IMG/VR virus record: IMGVR_UViG_3300023038_000160 | DNA length: 13,247 nucleotides | Strand: one strand, 5' to 3' | DNA from: a virus | Lineage: Duplodnaviria > Heunggongvirae > Uroviricota > Caudoviricetes | Part shown: piece after piece, positions 23-13,247 of the stretch | Position numbering within the stretch: position 1 is the first letter of the stretch | Layout of the letters: each line of letters starts with the position of its first letter | Program-made: the position numbers and the translations under genes | Notes under the pieces: model-generated | Told to the model about the DNA's origin: nothing | The model's input: the letters and a program-made list of their open reading frames with translations, nothing else | The model's database searches: none

Positions 23-98
23 GCCGATATAGCTCAGTTGGTAGAGCAGCGCATTCGTAATGCGAAGGTCGTAGGTTCGACTCCTATTATCGGCACCA
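23..98 (+). tRNA. thrW: tRNA-Thr, anticodon CGT (reads ACG), CCA end encoded
   Basis: 76-nt cloverleaf readable by eye: acceptor GCCGATA/TATCGGC, D-arm GCTC-AGTTGGTA-GAGC, anticodon arm GCGCA-TTCGTAA-TGCGA, T-arm GTAGG-TTCGACT-CCTAT, discriminator A plus CCA. From memory it matches the enterobacterial tRNA-Thr(CGU) gene, a known integration target. Confidence 0.9.
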
Positions 99-1475: not shown

Positions 1476-2027
1476 ATGCGCAGGTCTGCATTTGTGAGGA
1501 TGATGATTTTTACAACGTTGTTTGTAGGGGGAGCTTCTACCGCAGTTGCTAAAAACTGCAAAAAAGGAATACCTTGTGGTAACTCGTGTATAGCTGTTGG
1601 TAAGACGTGCCGGATTGGCTCTTATGCCCCTTCATCTTATAAAAATCATTCATACTCTTATCCTTCATCCTCTATTCGAAGCTCGCAATCAAATAATTCA
1701 CGAAAAACTGAAGGAGTGAAAACGACTCCTGCTGCCAAAAATTATCTTTGCCAATACTCTATTGCATCAATCGAAAACGGACGTTTAGGGGCATTACGTG
1801 TTCAGGGATACGCACAAGTAACTTTATATGCAGATAGCTTCAAGGCTAACAGATTAAATGGAACATATTTGATATCGCCAAAACTGTATGCTAACGGCAA
1901 GTTTATGATGGCAGATGATAAAAGCAAGGTTTATGCTTATGATTCTTGGCTATTAAATTTTGCAATAAGCGATCGTATCACAAGAACGACAGAACAATGG
2001 GATCGATGTAAGCTCAATCAAAAATAA
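1476..2027 (+). CDS. Secreted cysteine-rich hypothetical protein (183 aa) with predicted Sec signal peptide
   Basis: Strong RBS (AAAAAGGGAGG 6 nt before ATG); N-terminus MRRSAFVRMMIFTTLFVGGASTAVA is a basic n-region, hydrophobic core and AxA cleavage motif; mature part starts with C-x4-C-x3-C-x6-C and has two more Cys near the C-terminus; followed by an 8-bp stem hairpin. No family recognised by eye. Confidence 0.6.
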   Translation: MRRSAFVRMMIFTTLFVGGASTAVAKNCKKGIPCGNSCIAVGKTCRIGSYAPSSYKNHSYSYPSSSIRSSQSNNSRKTEGVKTTPAAKNYLCQYSIASIENGRLGALRVQGYAQVTLYADSFKANRLNGTYLISPKLYANGKFMMADDKSKVYAYDSWLLNFAISDRITRTTEQWDRCKLNQK

Positions 2028-2045
2028 CAGTTAGAGAAGCTCTTG

Positions 2046-2105
2046 TAGAGGCATTATTGAGTTATTGGTTTTAATATTTTTGTGCCTCTATGGGCTTTTT
2101 TTGCC
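2046..2105 (+). terminator. Putative intrinsic terminator after the secreted-protein gene
   Basis: Perfect 8-bp inverted repeat TAGAGGCA (2046-2053) / TGCCTCTA (2083-2090) followed by GGGCTTTTTTTGCCTTTTT; the loop is long and AT-rich, so efficiency is uncertain. Confidence 0.35.
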
Positions 2106-2787
2106 TTTTTGCAATGTAGGAGAGAGCACAGGAATCGTTAAAATTAATTATTGGGGTATTTAAGGTTATTTTCAGGTGATTTAAGGGTATTAAACTTGAT
2201 TTAATTGGTTAAAATATAAACAGATAGTTCTGTATCTTATTGATTTATAAGGTTATTTTTAAATAAAGGTAAATAAAAAATAAATAGCTATAAATACATC
2301 TTAATACCTATATCCCTTCCCTTATGGCTAGATTGCGAGAGGTGCTTAACGCGATTTTCAGCGCCCCCCGATCTGGAAAATCCAGAATCCCCAAATATCA
2401 GCAAGGAATTTCTTGCACAATCAACATCGTTTTTACCTATTAAATCATTACACAGAAAGCCTTTCTGTAATGCCTCTCACTAAACTTTCACTAAACACGA
2501 GAATGATCGGTTTTATGTCGGATCTGATGCTAGAAACAGCACCACGTCTCACAAGGGCTGTAAGCGATGAAACCAGTGTTTATGCGGGTGCGGGTCAAAA
2601 TATAGGCCAAAATCCATTTAACATAATAATCATAATATGCACTAAGGAACACATAGAACGCCTTGAATTGATGTATCATGGGAAAAGTGATGGATTTTTT
2701 ACGTAGGAGCACGAGAGGGCTTCTGTTTACTTTTGTGTGCTATGAAATATAATTAAAGGTTTTTTTGTTTTTATTGTGTGAAGTGGT

Positions 2788-3230
2788 GGATTACACAGGG
2801 GAATAGATTAAATGGTGTTCTGTTTATACAGGTTTATTTGTTAGATCAACAATTTGGCATTTCTAAACAGATGTTTGAACGTTGCCAAATGTCTTGACAA
2901 CACAAGAAAAGGGCTTGCTATGCCACGCATTACACGAAATAAGGCTGTAAAAACAAAATAAATTTTAAAATTTGCACAAACGAGAAAACTCGTTCAGAAA
3001 CAAGCAGAACAATTTTTAGCCAACAATTTCTGATGGTGTGCTGTAAGCCGCATTACACAAGGCTTTGCGAAAGTGATGTAAAAGTGAAGAAAGTAAGAAT
3101 TGCACTTTTAAGCTACTTTTTCATTGAATTTTTAGTATGGAATTACACAGGAATAAGTTAGGGATATTCTATGATTTACACAGGGAATATAGGGGGATTA
3201 TGGCACACACATAGAAAGGCATTACACAGG
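2788..3230 (+). repeat. Array of same-orientation motif copies, consensus G(C/A)ATTACACAGG(G)
   Basis: Copies at 2790-2799, 3142-3151, 3221-3230 (exact ATTACACAGG) and variants at 2929-2937, 3052-3062, 3174-3185; further variants outside this span at 4353-4364 and 4435-4444. Three copies extend to ...CAGGG(G)AAT. Irregular spacing, all on the + strand. Confidence 0.6.
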
Positions 3231-3276
3231 GTGAGTGCTATGTGACAAATGGATGTAACGGTAGGTCATAGTGAGC

Positions 3277-3416
3277 TACCCCCTATCAAGTCTAACAGGG
3301 GTTTATAAAGAATAATAAACCGATGATACCCCTATCAATATTGATACCCCTATTAACTTTGATATGACTACCCCTATCAAGTCTGATACCCCTACCCCTA
3401 TCAAAACTGATACCCG
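3277..3416 (+). repeat. Iteron cluster, core (G/C)(A/T)TACCCCTATCAA, candidate replication origin
   Basis: Direct repeats at 3277-3294, 3325-3338, 3343-3356, 3368-3380, 3385-3404 and a partial copy at 3409-3416, spaced 18-24 bp (about two helical turns), immediately followed by a very AT-rich tract (3417-3490) that could act as a DNA unwinding element. Confidence 0.65.
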
Positions 3417-3489
3417 ATAAGAATAAGTTAATAAGAATAATTAAATAATAATTAAATAATATTCTTTATATCTATATATATATGATTTT

Positions 3490-3660
3490 TTGCCTTCCGG
3501 CGTTAGCTTCACTCTCTGGCAAGCAGCCTTACTCCGCTACCTTTCGGGCTACGTTGGCTGGCCCCGTTCCGCTCACACCGAAAGCAAAGCGTTACTTTCT
3601 TCGTGTAACTATCGTTGGCGGTAACGCCCACGAAGAAATACTATTGCGCTATGCGCAGTA
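3490..3660. other. GC-rich structured patch inside the AT-rich noncoding region; candidate cos/pac-like packaging site, primosome site or structured ncRNA
   Basis: Sharp local rise in GC; nested hairpin TTCTTCGTG(3596-3604)...CACGAAGAA(3633-3641) with inner CGTT/AACG stem; motifs CCGTTCCGCTC and GTTACTTTCTTCGTGTAACT resemble, from memory, the terminase-binding R elements and adjacent sequence of lambda cosB. Not verified by alignment. Confidence 0.3.
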
Positions 3661-3722
3661 AGAGTAATCACCTAACCAATCATACTGATTGCTTATGTGT
3701 TAACTCTATCTCTCTACCTCTT

Positions 3723-3880
3723 AATTCCACTTCCTACATTCTGTAGTTGTGTAATTACTCGAAGAGAGAGCGGCTAAAGCTCAATTACACTCTGCTTTCC
3801 TCGTGTAATTTCACTAAGCCTCAATACAATTCCACTTCCTACATTTAATAACTCTCGTTATTCTCTGTAGTTGTGTAATT
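3723..3880 (+). repeat. Split direct repeat: AATTCCACTTCCTACATT x2 and CTGTAGTTGTGTAATT x2
   Basis: 18-mer at 3723-3740 and 3828-3845; 16-mer at 3741-3756 and 3865-3880; the two halves are adjacent in copy 1 and separated by a 19-bp insert in copy 2. GTGTAATT also occurs at 3809-3816 and, inverted, at 3782-3789. Confidence 0.55.
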
Positions 3881-4509
3881 GTTTTCGGTGGAAAAGCCAG
3901 AGGCGACACCGAAAGAGAATTCTGATCTTATTAATCTTATCTATCTTAGTTATCTTACTTACTTATCTTACTTTATCTACTTTATTATTAATAATAGCTT
4001 TATAAGCTCTATGTAGCTCTCTGACGCAAGAAACAGAGTTCAGGAAGGGAATCACCTTAGAAAAGTGTTCTTTGCGTCATAATGTGTTTTATGAAGGATT
4101 CAGAGGTGTTTCATAACAGGAATGTATAGAGGATACTTTAGGTAATTAAAAATAAGGGGTCTAAATGCTTCTCTAACAGCATTAAGCAGGGTAGAGAATG
4201 GAAACGCATTGCCTACACATATAAGCTCACTACAGAGCTTTACATAGCGTTTTATAAAGTGACTCTCTATCTTATATCTACAATCACCTTTTCATATACC
4301 TAACAAATACAAAATAAGCCCCTTAAATAAGCCTCTGGCGAGCTAAACAGCCATTACATAAGGGAATGTATTGCTTTTATCAAAATCTCGTTAGAACGCG
4401 TTTTAGAGCGTTTTAGACAATAATGAAGAATAGCACTACACAGGAGAGCACGAATTGTTAAGCAAAAATGTAAGTGCATGAAAAAGATCAGTTTTTTTGT
4501 GAAAAGGTA

Positions 4510-4538
4510 TTGACAAATGTTTCTTTATATGTAATAAT
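4510..4538 (+). promoter_or_regulatory. Sigma70-type promoter for the regulator/replication operon
   Basis: TTGACA (4510-4515), 17-bp spacer, AATAAT (4533-4538) with extended -10 TG at 4530-4531; a ~100-nt leader containing a short hairpin and T-run precedes the first gene. Confidence 0.5.
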
Positions 4539-4648
4539 AGGTATTAGAGGGACAGAAAACATTCTTCTCTAAATAATCAAAATCAATGCACTTTGAAGCC
4601 GTCAGGCTTGCAAGGTGTTTTTTCTTTTAACTGAATAAGGAGTTTTTT

Positions 4649-4837
4649 ATGAAATGGTTCACATCTGAGCACGTCGTTCAGGCATTTAAAAAAGGTGAGT
4701 TATCTCGCCACCAAGTAGTAATGAATCGTAATATGGCAAGGAGTCGAGGTTATCCAGAGCGAGCTGCTTGCTTCAATGAAGCACTCAAGATTATTGATGA
4801 ACTAAGAAAAAATGAAAAAGAATCTGAAACAGAGTAA
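4649..4837 (+). CDS. Small putative DNA-binding regulator (62 aa)
   Basis: Strong RBS AAGGAG 7 nt upstream; first gene after the promoter; basic helical segment LSRHQVVMNRNMARSRG. Family not recognised. Confidence 0.5.
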   Translation: MKWFTSEHVVQAFKKGELSRHQVVMNRNMARSRGYPERAACFNEALKIIDELRKNEKESETE

Positions 4838-4856: not shown

Positions 4857-5027
4857 ATGAGCGAAACTACAGAAAAGAAAAGACAACCACGCACTTGCTT
4901 TCATATTCCTGATGAAGTATTTCAGGTGTTATTTAAAGAAGCCAGAAGTAGACGTATCACTGTCACAGATTACATTCTTGATATGTTGAAAAGAGAGGCT
5001 GAAACACTCTCAAATAAAAGCAAGTGA
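4857..5027 (+). CDS. Ribbon-helix-helix (CopG/Arc-like) DNA-binding protein (56 aa)
   Basis: Start moved from the track's 4812 to the ATG at 4857, which has AAGGAG 7 nt upstream and avoids overlap with the previous gene; RTCFHIPDEVFQVLFKEARSRRITVTDYILDMLK fits a beta-strand followed by two helices. Confidence 0.55.
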   Translation: MSETTEKKRQPRTCFHIPDEVFQVLFKEARSRRITVTDYILDMLKREAETLSNKSK

Positions 5028-5080: not shown

Positions 5081-5749
5081 ATGATTAAACATACAAAACC
5101 TTTTTTAGGAATAGATTATGACTTACTAGCAATCACTTCCCTGGTGATTAACGGCAAAACAAAAGAAGTAAAACTACACCATAAGATCATTTATTCTTAT
5201 TTGTTAAGTTTATCTGGCACATACCAAAAGGTAACACCATCTTTGAAAGGTATTGGTGAGCGGTTAGGAGTAGGTACAGATCAGACGGTACGCCGTCATA
5301 TCAAAGATCTTGTTTCTTTTGGATGGTTGAAGATTGAGGAAAGGGCAGGTAGCACAAATGCTTATATTGTCCTTCCTTATGAACAAGAAGCCAAAACACA
5401 ACAAGAAGCTACCGTTAAAGCTGTTCCTGAACAGCTTCCCCCTACAGAAGATAATAAAGAGTCTTCTTTTGATGTTCTTGATGATTGGGATGCGCCTTTG
5501 CCGTGGGAGACGGAAGAAACACCTGTTTCATCAAGTGAAAAGGTAGCTAATGATAATGAGGAGGATGTGTTAGAGAATTTTGCCTCTCTTATCTGCCAGC
5601 AGAAAAACACCAGAACAGGAGGGGCATCCTTTATAGAATTTGCAACATCGTTAGCCTATAAGCACAGGTTAAAGCTACCAAATGGTATTGAGGCATATTT
5701 TTCTAAGAATTACCCAAATGTGTATGATGACTTTGATATTCCATTTTAA
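5081..5749 (+). CDS. Winged-helix protein with acidic C-terminal region; candidate iteron-binding replication initiator
   Basis: ATG at 5081 with AAGGAG 8 nt upstream (the track's 5057 start is a GTG without SD); wHTH-like segment SLKGIGERLGVGTDQTVRRHIKDLVSFGWLKIEE; D/E-rich region in the C-terminal half; located downstream of the iteron cluster. The Rep role is inferred from context. Confidence 0.45.
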   Translation: MIKHTKPFLGIDYDLLAITSLVINGKTKEVKLHHKIIYSYLLSLSGTYQKVTPSLKGIGERLGVGTDQTVRRHIKDLVSFGWLKIEERAGSTNAYIVLPYEQEAKTQQEATVKAVPEQLPPTEDNKESSFDVLDDWDAPLPWETEETPVSSSEKVANDNEEDVLENFASLICQQKNTRTGGASFIEFATSLAYKHRLKLPNGIEAYFSKNYPNVYDDFDIPF

Positions 5750-6168: not shown

Positions 6169-6576
6169 ATGGCAAAAAGAAAAAACAACGTTGTTAAGAA
6201 AATAGGGGATTCAGCTTCTCTTCTAAGTAAACCTAAATCTATTCTAAGACGCAAAGACTTTAAAGAGCTAGTAACGCTCACCAAGCATAATAGCGCCCCT
6301 GGCGAATGGAAAACAGAGATCATAGAACATTCTCCCTCTGTGCCTTGTGGAGATGAATTTAACGCATTACAAGAAATCTTATCTTCAACACCTGGTGTAT
6401 TCTGGAAACCTAGAAAAAGAAAAGAGTATATTGTTGATAGCTCTGATTTACGCAAATACCAGATTTTAGGATTTGAAGACTATAACCACTACGTCGGTTA
6501 TCTCGCCACCAATGGCCTAAATAATTTAGTTCCTGAATTCCAAATTTTAGATAATGCTGATTATGGAGACTTTTAA
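6169..6576 (+). CDS. Hypothetical protein (135 aa), basic N-terminus
   Basis: RBS AAAGGAAAGG 4-5 nt before ATG; operon context; no family recognised. Confidence 0.5.
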   Translation: MAKRKNNVVKKIGDSASLLSKPKSILRRKDFKELVTLTKHNSAPGEWKTEIIEHSPSVPCGDEFNALQEILSSTPGVFWKPRKRKEYIVDSSDLRKYQILGFEDYNHYVGYLATNGLNNLVPEFQILDNADYGDF

Positions 6577-11830: not shown

Positions 11831-13165
11831 CTATGGCGTTGTTTTACGCCTTAAATTTGATTTTTTATTGATTGATAAGCCTTTCTCTATTTCAGGGTAG
11901 CGTAGAAGCTCAATATATTTTTTAAGCTCTACTGGAGAAGCTGCATTCTTGCTATATGTGCGGAATGTCTCTGTATTGCCGCGTGTATGGCCCAGGAGAA
12001 GGGCGATCCTGTCTTCTGGAATTTGATTTCGATCAAGAAGCTGTGCTACTCCGTGTCTCAGAGAATGAAACACCTTCCTTTCTGTTCCCTTTTCCCCTAA
12101 AGCCTTTCGTTTAGCTCTTGTAAATCTCTGCGTGTGCCACGTAGAGCGTTTACCATCAGCACGCTCTGTAATGCTGGCGTGATAGAACAAAAAGCCATTA
12201 TGAGGCTTTTCACGCAGCGACAACACCAACGGAGTGATAAGGCTATGTACAGGCACAACACGTGCCGCAGCTTTCGTTTTTCCCTGTGTGATTTCAAAAC
12301 ACAGCACACCTTCGATCTCTTTCACATCGTCTATTGTGAGACTTGCTATCTCATTGATCCGCATACCTGTATATAAACCGATAAGACACAAAGCTATCAT
12401 TTCTTTGTTTTCTGCTGAATTACCGGAAAATACTTGCAACACCTGCAATAGCTCTTTGTTAGAAAATGCCTCGTAGCTCTCTCTACTTTGTGCCACATCA
12501 AGCCTATGCCCTCGCCAGGGGGAGAGCGCCCTTTCTGGCGCATCGTGGTAACGTGATGAAGCTAACTCCCATAGCTGGGCCATTGGGCTGATATAATTTG
12601 CAATTGATTGTTGTGAAAGGGTTTTTTGCATGTGTTCAATCCAGCCTGTAACAGTGGTGCGGCTTACATCTTGCAATGCAATATCAGGCTTTTTACGGTA
12701 GGAGAGAAACATCTCTACCGCTTTTCTTGCCTTAGCTAAAGTGGCTGGCTTCTTCTTCGTGCTGTTAATAGTCAGGTAGATTTCAAGAATTTTAAGCAAT
12801 GATGGACACGAAGACGCTGTATCTTGCATTCTGGTAGCTGTTTTGGCGTATTTAGCCTTACTGCGTAACAGTTCCAGCGTGTTCTCTATTGTGCTGTTTA
12901 CAGGAGCGACACTCTCGCGTAAGCAATGGTATTCATCTGCAATCTGATCACGCTTTCTACGTGCAACACGAAGATTACTTGTGTGCAGACTCCTGACAAA
13001 CGTCCTTTTTCCTTCAAAAAAGGGCTGCATATACACAGGCAGCGTGATCCTTAAATAGTAGTTACCGTAAGAATCACAGATTATGTATTGATTGGGCTTG
13101 TATCTCATAAACTCCCCGGCTAAAGTGTCGGAGCGTTTGTAATGTGAAAATTGATTGTAACGCAT
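11831..13165 (-). CDS. Tyrosine recombinase / phage-type integrase (444 aa) with N-terminal arm-binding-like domain
   Basis: Catalytic signature visible in the translation: TGMRINEI (Arg), HSLRHG (His-x-x-Arg), LLGHTRGNTETFRTYS (His and catalytic Tyr). An alternative start at 13108 (MRYKPNQ..., GGGGAG 3 nt upstream) is possible. Codon composition looks more GC-rich than the rest of the island. Confidence 0.85.
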   Translation of the reverse strand: MRYNQFSHYKRSDTLAGEFMRYKPNQYIICDSYGNYYLRITLPVYMQPFFEGKRTFVRSLHTSNLRVARRKRDQIADEYHCLRESVAPVNSTIENTLELLRSKAKYAKTATRMQDTASSCPSLLKILEIYLTINSTKKKPATLAKARKAVEMFLSYRKKPDIALQDVSRTTVTGWIEHMQKTLSQQSIANYISPMAQLWELASSRYHDAPERALSPWRGHRLDVAQSRESYEAFSNKELLQVLQVFSGNSAENKEMIALCLIGLYTGMRINEIASLTIDDVKEIEGVLCFEITQGKTKAAARVVPVHSLITPLVLSLREKPHNGFLFYHASITERADGKRSTWHTQRFTRAKRKALGEKGTERKVFHSLRHGVAQLLDRNQIPEDRIALLLGHTRGNTETFRTYSKNAASPVELKKYIELLRYPEIEKGLSINKKSNLRRKTTP

Positions 13166-13247
13166 AGAAAATGATAATTTTTTCTATAAGATTCAATCAA
13201 TTAGTAATGGTCGTAGGTGATGGCATTAACACGAGATTAATCGAGTG

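Follow-up and report, generated by a model that had tools for sequence, protein, structure and literature searches.

Genomic organization of the island

The DNA analyzed here (13,247 bases; hereafter the window) carries two copies of a 10-bp attachment core, GGTCGTAGGT, the left copy being located inside a tRNA-Thr(CGU) gene at 23-98 (Table 1). Between the core copies, we identified genes for a major capsid protein, a tape-measure-like protein and a Dit-like tail protein, together with small ORFs. The start annotated for the integrase gene in an E. coli relative gives a protein of 425 aa (~11831-13108).

A survey of complete E. coli genomes revealed that about 80 of 5,426 carry ≥80% of the island at ~95% identity, and that its site in those genomes is thrW, next to proA. 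The closest E. coli relative, CP040269, is 95.6% identical over the whole length of the window. Furthermore, Escherichia phage muut, a Justusliebigvirus within the Stephanstirmvirinae, encodes homologues of the tail proteins and the Arc-like protein of the island. The island genes, the attachment cores, the integrase and the homology to muut thus identify the window as a phage satellite of ~13.1 kb integrated in tRNA-Thr.

Among the ORFs scanned, several of which match no family at all, none matched terminase, helicase, primase, loader or polymerase families, and neither Rep nor any other scanned ORF contains a helicase and/or primase domain of the SaPI/PICI Pri-Rep or P4 alpha type. Because no helicase, primase or polymerase family was matched, plasmid-style autonomous replication is unlikely. 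The preliminary description of this DNA had proposed that the element replicates autonomously after excision, a claim that we do not uphold; among analogues that have been studied, the closest is the satellite PLE, which, with a RepA that is a proven iteron-binding initiator, depends on replication proteins of its helper phage (PMC7145576).

TABLE 1 Coordinates of the attachment sites, the putative origin region and the rep operon in the window
Feature	Position	Strand	Basis
Left attachment core GGTCGTAGGT, 10 bp	68..77	+	Inside tRNA-Thr(CGU) 23-98
Leftover single copies of other iteron classes: D-type TGGATGTAACGG, C-type TAGGTCATAGTGAGCTA	3250..3278	+	Same motifs form full arrays in WH4 (D) and WH3 (C) loci
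A-type iteron array, five units and a half unit, TGATA-CCCC-TATCAA	3276..3415	+	Repeat count versus chance; class pairing with WH1
Iteron unit CTACCCCCTATCAA	3276-3289		
Iteron unit TGATACCCCTATCAA, canonical form	3324-3338		
Iteron unit TGATACCCCTATTAA	3342-3356		
Iteron unit TGATATGACTACCCCTATCAA	3360-3380		
Iteron unit TGATACCCCTACCCCTATCAA	3384-3404		
Iteron half unit TGATACCC	3408-3415		
AT-rich tract, presumed DNA-unwinding element	3417..3487	.	71 bp, 8.5% G+C
Conserved G+C-rich structured element, ~180 nt	3488..3668	+	52.8% G+C; pairing kept despite sequence changes
Strong sigma-70-type promoter ahead of the rep operon	4510..4538	+	TTGACA-17-(TG)AATAAT, 11/12 matches
62-aa ORF opening the rep operon	4649..4837	+	Annotated in E. 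coli relative
Arc-like small DNA-binding protein	4857..5027	+	PHROG Arc-like repressor, E = 4e-3
Rep, putative initiator	5081..5749	+	Pfam, PHROG, fold match, conserved tail
Tyrosine integrase	11831..13165	−	Pfam Phage_integrase, E = 1.6e-17
Right attachment core GGTCGTAGGT, 10 bp	13208..13217	+	Repeat of left core

Iteron array and AT-rich tract

The core ACCCCTATCAA, counted as 11 bases with one mismatch allowed, occurs five times in the 13,247 bases, exclusively on the + strand, with matches starting at 3279, 3328, 3346, 3370 and 3394. Only 0.18 occurrences are expected by chance, and none of 200 shuffled sequences reached five. Core-to-core spacings are 49, 18, 24 and 24 bp, so that the array, previously described as five to six repeats at 18-24 bp, does comprise five units and a half unit, but its first copy stands 49 bp off. 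Each A-type unit is semi-palindromic, with an inner dyad symmetry (TGATA/TATCA around a C run) that the earlier description had missed, and two units are stretched to 21 bases by a CCCCTA-type insertion.

The AT-rich tract reported to follow the repeats was confirmed. It holds the least stable 70-mer of the whole window (3422-3491), which is also its lowest in G+C content; the computed stability of this segment, -62.9 kcal/mol, is more than 4 sd off the window mean of -88.5 (sd 6.0). In thrW-type loci, the iterons are followed by a tract ending in ...AATATTCTTTATATCTATATATATGAT(C/T) irrespective of iteron class, and in thiM-type loci by an AT-rich tract with another end. Iterons and tract reproduce the layout of iteron origins in theta plasmids that had been proposed for this region, but this likeness is incomplete, in that no DnaA box (TTATCCACA, ≤1 mismatch) was found between 2000 and 4700.

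The iterons lie in non-coding DNA ~1.6 kb upstream of rep, and the closest E. coli relative has no annotated gene across 2027-4649. At 3250-3278, the single D-type and C-type copies are fossils of other origin cassettes. A DNA search of the phage collection with the origin as query returned nothing significant.

Two further sequence features surround the array. A second AT-rich tract at 3925-3996, with CTTATCT-like repeats, contains the second least stable 70-mer of the window. In addition, ATTACACAGG (≤1 mismatch) is present in 12 copies against 0.7 expected; six + strand copies lie upstream of the iterons in 2447-3230, and GTGTAAT copies, inverted relative to ATTACACAGG, lie downstream at 3748-3878. 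The complete muut genome shows no enrichment of ATTACACAGG, and the idea that the ATTACAC motif is a phage promoter was rejected on this ground.

Rep and its operon

The winged-helix ORF with an acidic stretch noted in the preliminary description proved to be real. Rep consists of a WH1-type winged helix (residues ~10-100), an acidic linker (102-158) that is of low confidence in the structure model, and a small helical C-terminal domain (160-218). Its N-terminus matches Pfam HTH_36 (E = 1.2e-7) and PHROG families of the replication-initiation, O-like and DnaD-like types (E ~1e-10 to 5e-8); Pfam RepA_N (PF06970) is not matched, HTH_36 and HTH_11 being the only Pfam matches at E up to 0.1. By fold, the N-terminal domain is of the RepA_N/DnaD-N type: the top Foldseek match of the winged helix is 4RO3, the N-terminal domain of PLE RepA, followed by 4PQL, 5KBJ and 4PT7, all S. 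aureus RepA_N initiators.

These fold matches bear on another notion, in which Rep is a winged-helix centromere binder and the repeats form its partition (centromere) site, as on plasmids. Centromeres are likewise arrays of phased repeats, and the centromere binders TubR and AspA do appear among the weak fold matches; their matches are, however, weaker than those to RepA proteins, partition ATPase/GTPase families are unmatched in the scanned ORFs, and the element is integrated in the chromosome. We regard a partition site as extremely improbable.

The protein ends in DDFDIPF (residues 216-222; window 5726-5746). Within the family, D217, F218, D219, P221 and F222 never vary, and I220 hardly does; relatives show the variants DDFEIPF, EEDFDSIPF, RFDPIPF and EDFDLPF, and a DFDIPF-like tail is kept even in a Rep (locus L027) whose C-terminal half no longer aligns with that of the window. 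This tail resembles the tip of E. coli SSB, DFDDDIPF (last six residues DDDIPF), which docks PriA, DnaG and other partners (PMC5872125). As a tentative and rather doubtful proposal, the Rep tail may copy the host SSB tip, so that origin-bound Rep would plug into the pockets of PriA, DnaG primase or Pol III chi. A restart-type primosome or priming factors would then start replication without a helicase loader of the satellite's own, and the structured element next to the AT-rich tract would serve as the loading or priming site. That the tail imitates a phage SSB instead is unlikely, because none of the muut ORFs has an IPF-type tail.

A counterpart of the 62-aa ORF precedes rep in all related loci, and the Arc-like protein shares 43% identity with the protein encoded directly ahead of the muut nuclease gene (see below). 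An exact 16-base direct repeat, GTTATCTCGCCACCAA, occurs in two different ORFs 1.8 kb apart (4699-4714 and 6497-6512).

Co-variation of winged helices and iterons

To compare related loci, we fetched them per winged-helix class and read the DNA upstream of rep. Rep homologues share a common C-terminal half joined to at least five unrelated or very divergent winged helices, and each class of winged helix is paired with its own class of iteron (Table 2). The winged-helix class predicts the iteron class at the AT-rich tract in 44 of 46 related loci, a count that reflects shared ancestry and represents neither independent events nor a probability. Every one of the 24 genome or viral loci that could be assessed, the window among them, follows the rule, as do 20 of 22 such metagenome loci. 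Both exceptions are metagenome contigs (L060, WH3 with A only; L064, WH2 with C only), which may be assembly chimeras or orphan recombinants. The weight of the co-variation lies instead in the 5 to 7 distinct matched classes found on a near-identical backbone.

TABLE 2 Winged-helix classes of Rep and the iteron classes paired with them
Winged helix	Iteron class	Iteron
WH1	A	TGATACCCCTATCAA
WH2	B	CCCCCACAGAATTCTGTTAGACA
WH3	C	TAGGTCAyWGTGAGCTAGGGGG
WH3, divergent	F	Related to C
WH4	D	GTAACGATACGTTAC
WH5	E	AGGAAATGATTTCCT
WH5, divergent	E2	GGCAATGATTGCC, symmetrical differences from E

A-type arrays adjoin the AT-rich tract in every locus with a WH1 Rep, and class C is the most frequent among the fetched loci. 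All seven iteron classes are dyad-symmetric (for example, TGATA/TATCA, ACAGAA/TTCTGT, GTAACG/CGTTAC and AGGAAA/TTTCCT), and every class has a C or G run. The two WH5 sites, GGAAATGATTTCC and GGCAATGATTGCC, differ symmetrically, indicating that related winged helices go with related iterons. WH5 Reps with E-type iterons (AGGAAATGATTTCCT) are represented by L019 (3566-4297), L035, L044, L056 and L062.

The module also shows strict conservation of its architecture. The order of iterons, AT-rich tract, structured element, spacer of ~0.5-0.9 kb, promoter, two small ORFs and rep is fixed in all loci; neither the two chromosomal sites nor the divergent versions depart from it. In several loci, two or three complete cassettes of iterons plus AT-rich tract, each of a different class, stand in tandem with the cognate one last (L007, 3085-3660; L008, 3845-4420; L018, L025, L069 and L070). 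Recombination could have left such stacked cassettes as scars, or they may act as spare origins or as decoys against phage nucleases. A scan of genome contigs yielded one locus and a search of 1.84 billion representatives only 9 matches; the Rep C-terminal domain is thus confined to Escherichia and close relatives, and the comparison draws on these and on no distant homologues.

A variable head on a conserved tail would also suit a docking adaptor, and the repeats could in that case form a packaging-recognition site. Rep would then be a small-terminase-like factor whose N-terminus reads satellite DNA and whose C-terminus docks the large terminase of the helper, on an island that has capsid and tail genes and no terminase match among the ORFs scanned. 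Lambda Nu1 binds repeated cosB sites via a winged helix, which would be a precedent for such a factor. Rep, however, has no terminase-family match and its matches are initiators, the thiM-site islands described below carry the same module without any capsid gene, and an extreme AT-rich tract beside the sites is not known to be part of pac or cos recognition. Moreover, the island would be left with no replication module, unlike every studied satellite class (PMC7145576). A packaging site is therefore a very improbable explanation.

Phage nucleases built from Rep domains

The first 123 codons of rep and the spacer upstream of it are 96% identical in DNA sequence to phage muut. The muut protein concerned, muut_154, carries a WH1 domain (88% identical to satellite Rep), a WH5 domain (91%) and a C-terminal nuclease domain. 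Two other coliphage proteins have the same arrangement, namely inny_184 (WH4, 88%; WH5, 91%) and Mt1B1_P17 QNJ49226 (WH2, 83%; WH5, 85%), each likewise followed by a C-terminal nuclease. The C-terminal domain of muut_154 matches the PHROG family 'endonuclease' (E = 2e-18), Pfam MUG113 just above the cut-off and T5orf172 weakly, and it has homologues in other phages that are annotated as GIY-YIG or homing endonucleases.

This composition recalls ICP1 Odn, which combines a PLE RepA-like binding domain with T5orf172 and cleaves PLE origins at the iterons (PMC8263062). The nucleases of muut, inny and Mt1B1_P17 are predicted analogues of Odn, differing from it in having two DNA-binding domains. From the class pairing, the targets would be A and E iterons for muut, D and E for inny, and B and E for Mt1B1_P17; a nuclease matching class C has yet to be seen.

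Odn is thought to drive the swapping of PLE replicon modules, and one PLE variant escaped it through altered iteron spacing (PMC8263062). In the window, the gap between the half-sites is widened from 4 to 10 bp in two A-type units (3360-3404). By analogy, these widened units could be a form that escapes the nuclease.

Two other readings of the muut locus were discarded. The complete muut genome contains no iterons of classes A to E, which led us to reject the idea that the phage shares the satellite origin. The possibility that muut_154 is the phage's own initiator, with four copies of TGAAATGATTAC at 65.1 kb as origin, was dropped after the nuclease domain and a 2023 paper (see below) came to light. 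The repeat region itself, which is annotated as such (L010 15111-15172; genome 65111-65172), consists of the four TGAAATGATTAC copies followed by AT-rich DNA, and the core GAAATGATT is common to these repeats and to E-type iterons.

The satellite family and its conflict with these phages have been described before. Barth, Dunham and Seed (2023) proposed that three coliphage odn homologues target this satellite family (PMC10448857). Their study lists 224 putative satellites with modular RepA N-terminal domains and describes integration beside tRNA genes, capsid, tape-measure and baseplate genes, and matching phage nucleases (PMC10448857). CP040269 is included in its Table S6, so that family, RepA and arms-race idea had all been published before, from sequence analysis only. 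The word 'iteron' is absent from PMC10448857 and its supplements, which place no origin for these satellites, and we found no later paper on them in the library searched. The Figure 8 legend of PMC10448857 describes the second DNA-binding domain in each nuclease as lacking any detectable partner among satellites, whereas we observed that this domain matches the Rep of E-iteron satellites at 85-91%.

The structured element next to the AT-rich tract

The G+C-rich element that begins directly after the AT-rich tract is present and conserved in all loci. It is composed of an outer stem and two inner hairpins, whose pairing survives sequence changes among the window, L003, L013, L027 and L028. Hairpin variants across the divergent loci include GGCG-GUAA-CGCC, ACGG-UGAAA-CCGU, CUGAC-GAGA-GUCAG and CCG-UGAAA-CGG. 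On the + strand the loops read GUAA, GAGA and UGAAA, with GNRA-type loops among them, and these loops together with one U-G pair favor the + strand.

A search of the window and four divergent loci against Rfam assigned no family to the element. RNAalifold on MAFFT alignments gave a poor consensus, with the 3′ half of the element misaligned, so that the structural evidence consists of folds of single variants and of compensatory changes judged by eye. A 59-aa ORF at 3482-3661 was ruled out as coding by single-base indels between close relatives. The element may act as a structured RNA or, alternatively, as a single-strand priming signal.

Because the element adjoins the AT-rich tract, the tract could double as a promoter. 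In that reading the repeats would be operators, and Rep a transcription regulator of a promoter in the tract that drives a structured RNA or a long leader. Each repeat does have the palindromic form of a classical operator, a -10-like TATGAT closes the tract, and relatives of Rep are labelled 'transcriptional regulator', as in many database records. Several observations nevertheless argue for an origin. A consensus scan found no + strand promoter in the AT-rich tract, and a strong promoter dedicated to the rep operon lies 1 kb downstream. Rep is matched best by initiators in both family and fold, and an array of 3 to 6 phased sites with an adjoining 50-80 bp tract of <10% G+C forms an origin layout. 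Finally, the phage nucleases with a copied binding domain have a counterpart in the attack on PLE origins, which has been shown by experiment (PMC8263062). The structured RNA option keeps the operator-and-promoter explanation alive at low probability, and we hold it to be improbable; a dual role of the array, in replication and autoregulation, is possible.

A model of satellite replication and its relation to known systems

Taken together, these features make it very likely that 3276-3487 is the replication origin of the satellite, at which its own Rep would open the AT-rich tract and bring in outside replication proteins. Points that weigh against this reading are the missing DnaA box, the two metagenome contigs with a non-cognate array, the ~1.6 kb between the array and rep, and a possible promoter role of the tract. 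The N-terminal winged helix of Rep is expected to bind the semi-palindromic A-type iterons, probably as dimers, as the dyad symmetry of the iterons suggests. Several bound units about two helical turns apart would strain and open the 71-bp tract, and the conserved C-terminal part of Rep would recruit the replication proteins absent from the island, either from the host or from a helper phage.

The helpers are presumably Stephanstirmvirinae, for example muut, inny and Mt1B1_P17. In some of these phages, the same winged helices occur fused to a GIY-YIG-type (T5orf172/MUG113) domain, and the resulting nucleases would be expected to cut the origin. Such nuclease pressure would explain why satellites swap matched modules of winged helix and iterons. 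The preliminary interpretation of the region as an origin is thereby largely retained: the iterons, the unwinding tract and a cognate winged-helix protein are supported by the initiator matches, the co-variation and the phage nucleases, while autonomy is doubtful and the theta-plasmid comparison holds in part.

A lambda-like or PLE-like origin is the best-supported model. In the lambda ori, too, an AT-rich tract follows iterons that are dyad-symmetric in themselves, and in lambdoid phages specificity changes by a joint swap of the N-terminal domain and the iterons. Likewise, the winged helix of Rep matches PHROG families annotated as replication initiation O-like. In contrast to lambda, the origin here lies outside the initiator gene, 1.6 kb upstream; a P-like helicase-loader match is absent among the scanned ORFs, and the C-terminal domain of Rep is unrelated to O.

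The RepA_N initiators of pSK41 and pTZ2162 are similar to Rep in the fold of the N-terminal domain (4PQL, 4PT7 and 5KBJ) and also have semi-palindromic iterons. Rep differs from these staphylococcal proteins in its C-terminal domain and in having no Pfam RepA_N match. The rep gene itself contains the origin in many RepA_N plasmids.

The parallels with PLE are more extensive. Both elements are satellites of a lytic phage with its own replisome (PMC7145576, PMC8263062), and both have an initiator with a RepA_N-like N-terminal DNA-binding domain and neither helicase nor primase activity. In both, the iterons are semi-palindromic and located in a non-coding region, the N-terminal domain of the initiator and the origin swap jointly as a module, and the helper has a chimeric nuclease, consisting of the DNA-binding domain of the initiator and T5orf172, that is directed (here by prediction) at the origin.

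Several differences set the two apart. The N-terminal domain of Rep is only ~20-23% identical in sequence to that of PLE RepA, and its C-terminal domain, with DFDIPF at the end, has no relation to the one in PLE. Here we distinguish five or more specificity classes, compared with the two replicon modules described for PLEs (PMC8263062), and some relatives stack two or three origin cassettes. Integration here relies on a tyrosine recombinase, in PLE on a large serine recombinase. The window family, moreover, is known from sequence alone.

To the published account of these satellites, our analysis adds the location and sequence of the probable origin, the pairing of iteron classes with winged helices, the tandem cassettes and the satellites cognate to the second nuclease domain. 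It further adds the SSB-like tail of Rep, the conserved structured element and the reuse of the module by thiM-site defense islands. The published conflict between E. coli satellites and Stephanstirmvirinae thereby gains a concrete DNA target, and exact iteron sequences for at least five specificity classes make the arms-race model testable in a tractable host. The module also offers a compact, swappable set of origin and initiator, and a lead on how an initiator with neither helicase nor primase recruits a replisome.

Reuse of the module by other islands

The same origin/Rep module is present in smaller islands that have a serine recombinase. Five of these are located at the thiM site of the E. 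coli chromosome (L003, L004, L027, L028 and L029), and another is on a metagenome contig (L013). Defense cargo, comprising SIR2, AIPR, TIR and GmrSD, is found in L004, L027, L028 and L029. E. coli B/BL21 and E. coli C retain a remnant of one such island.
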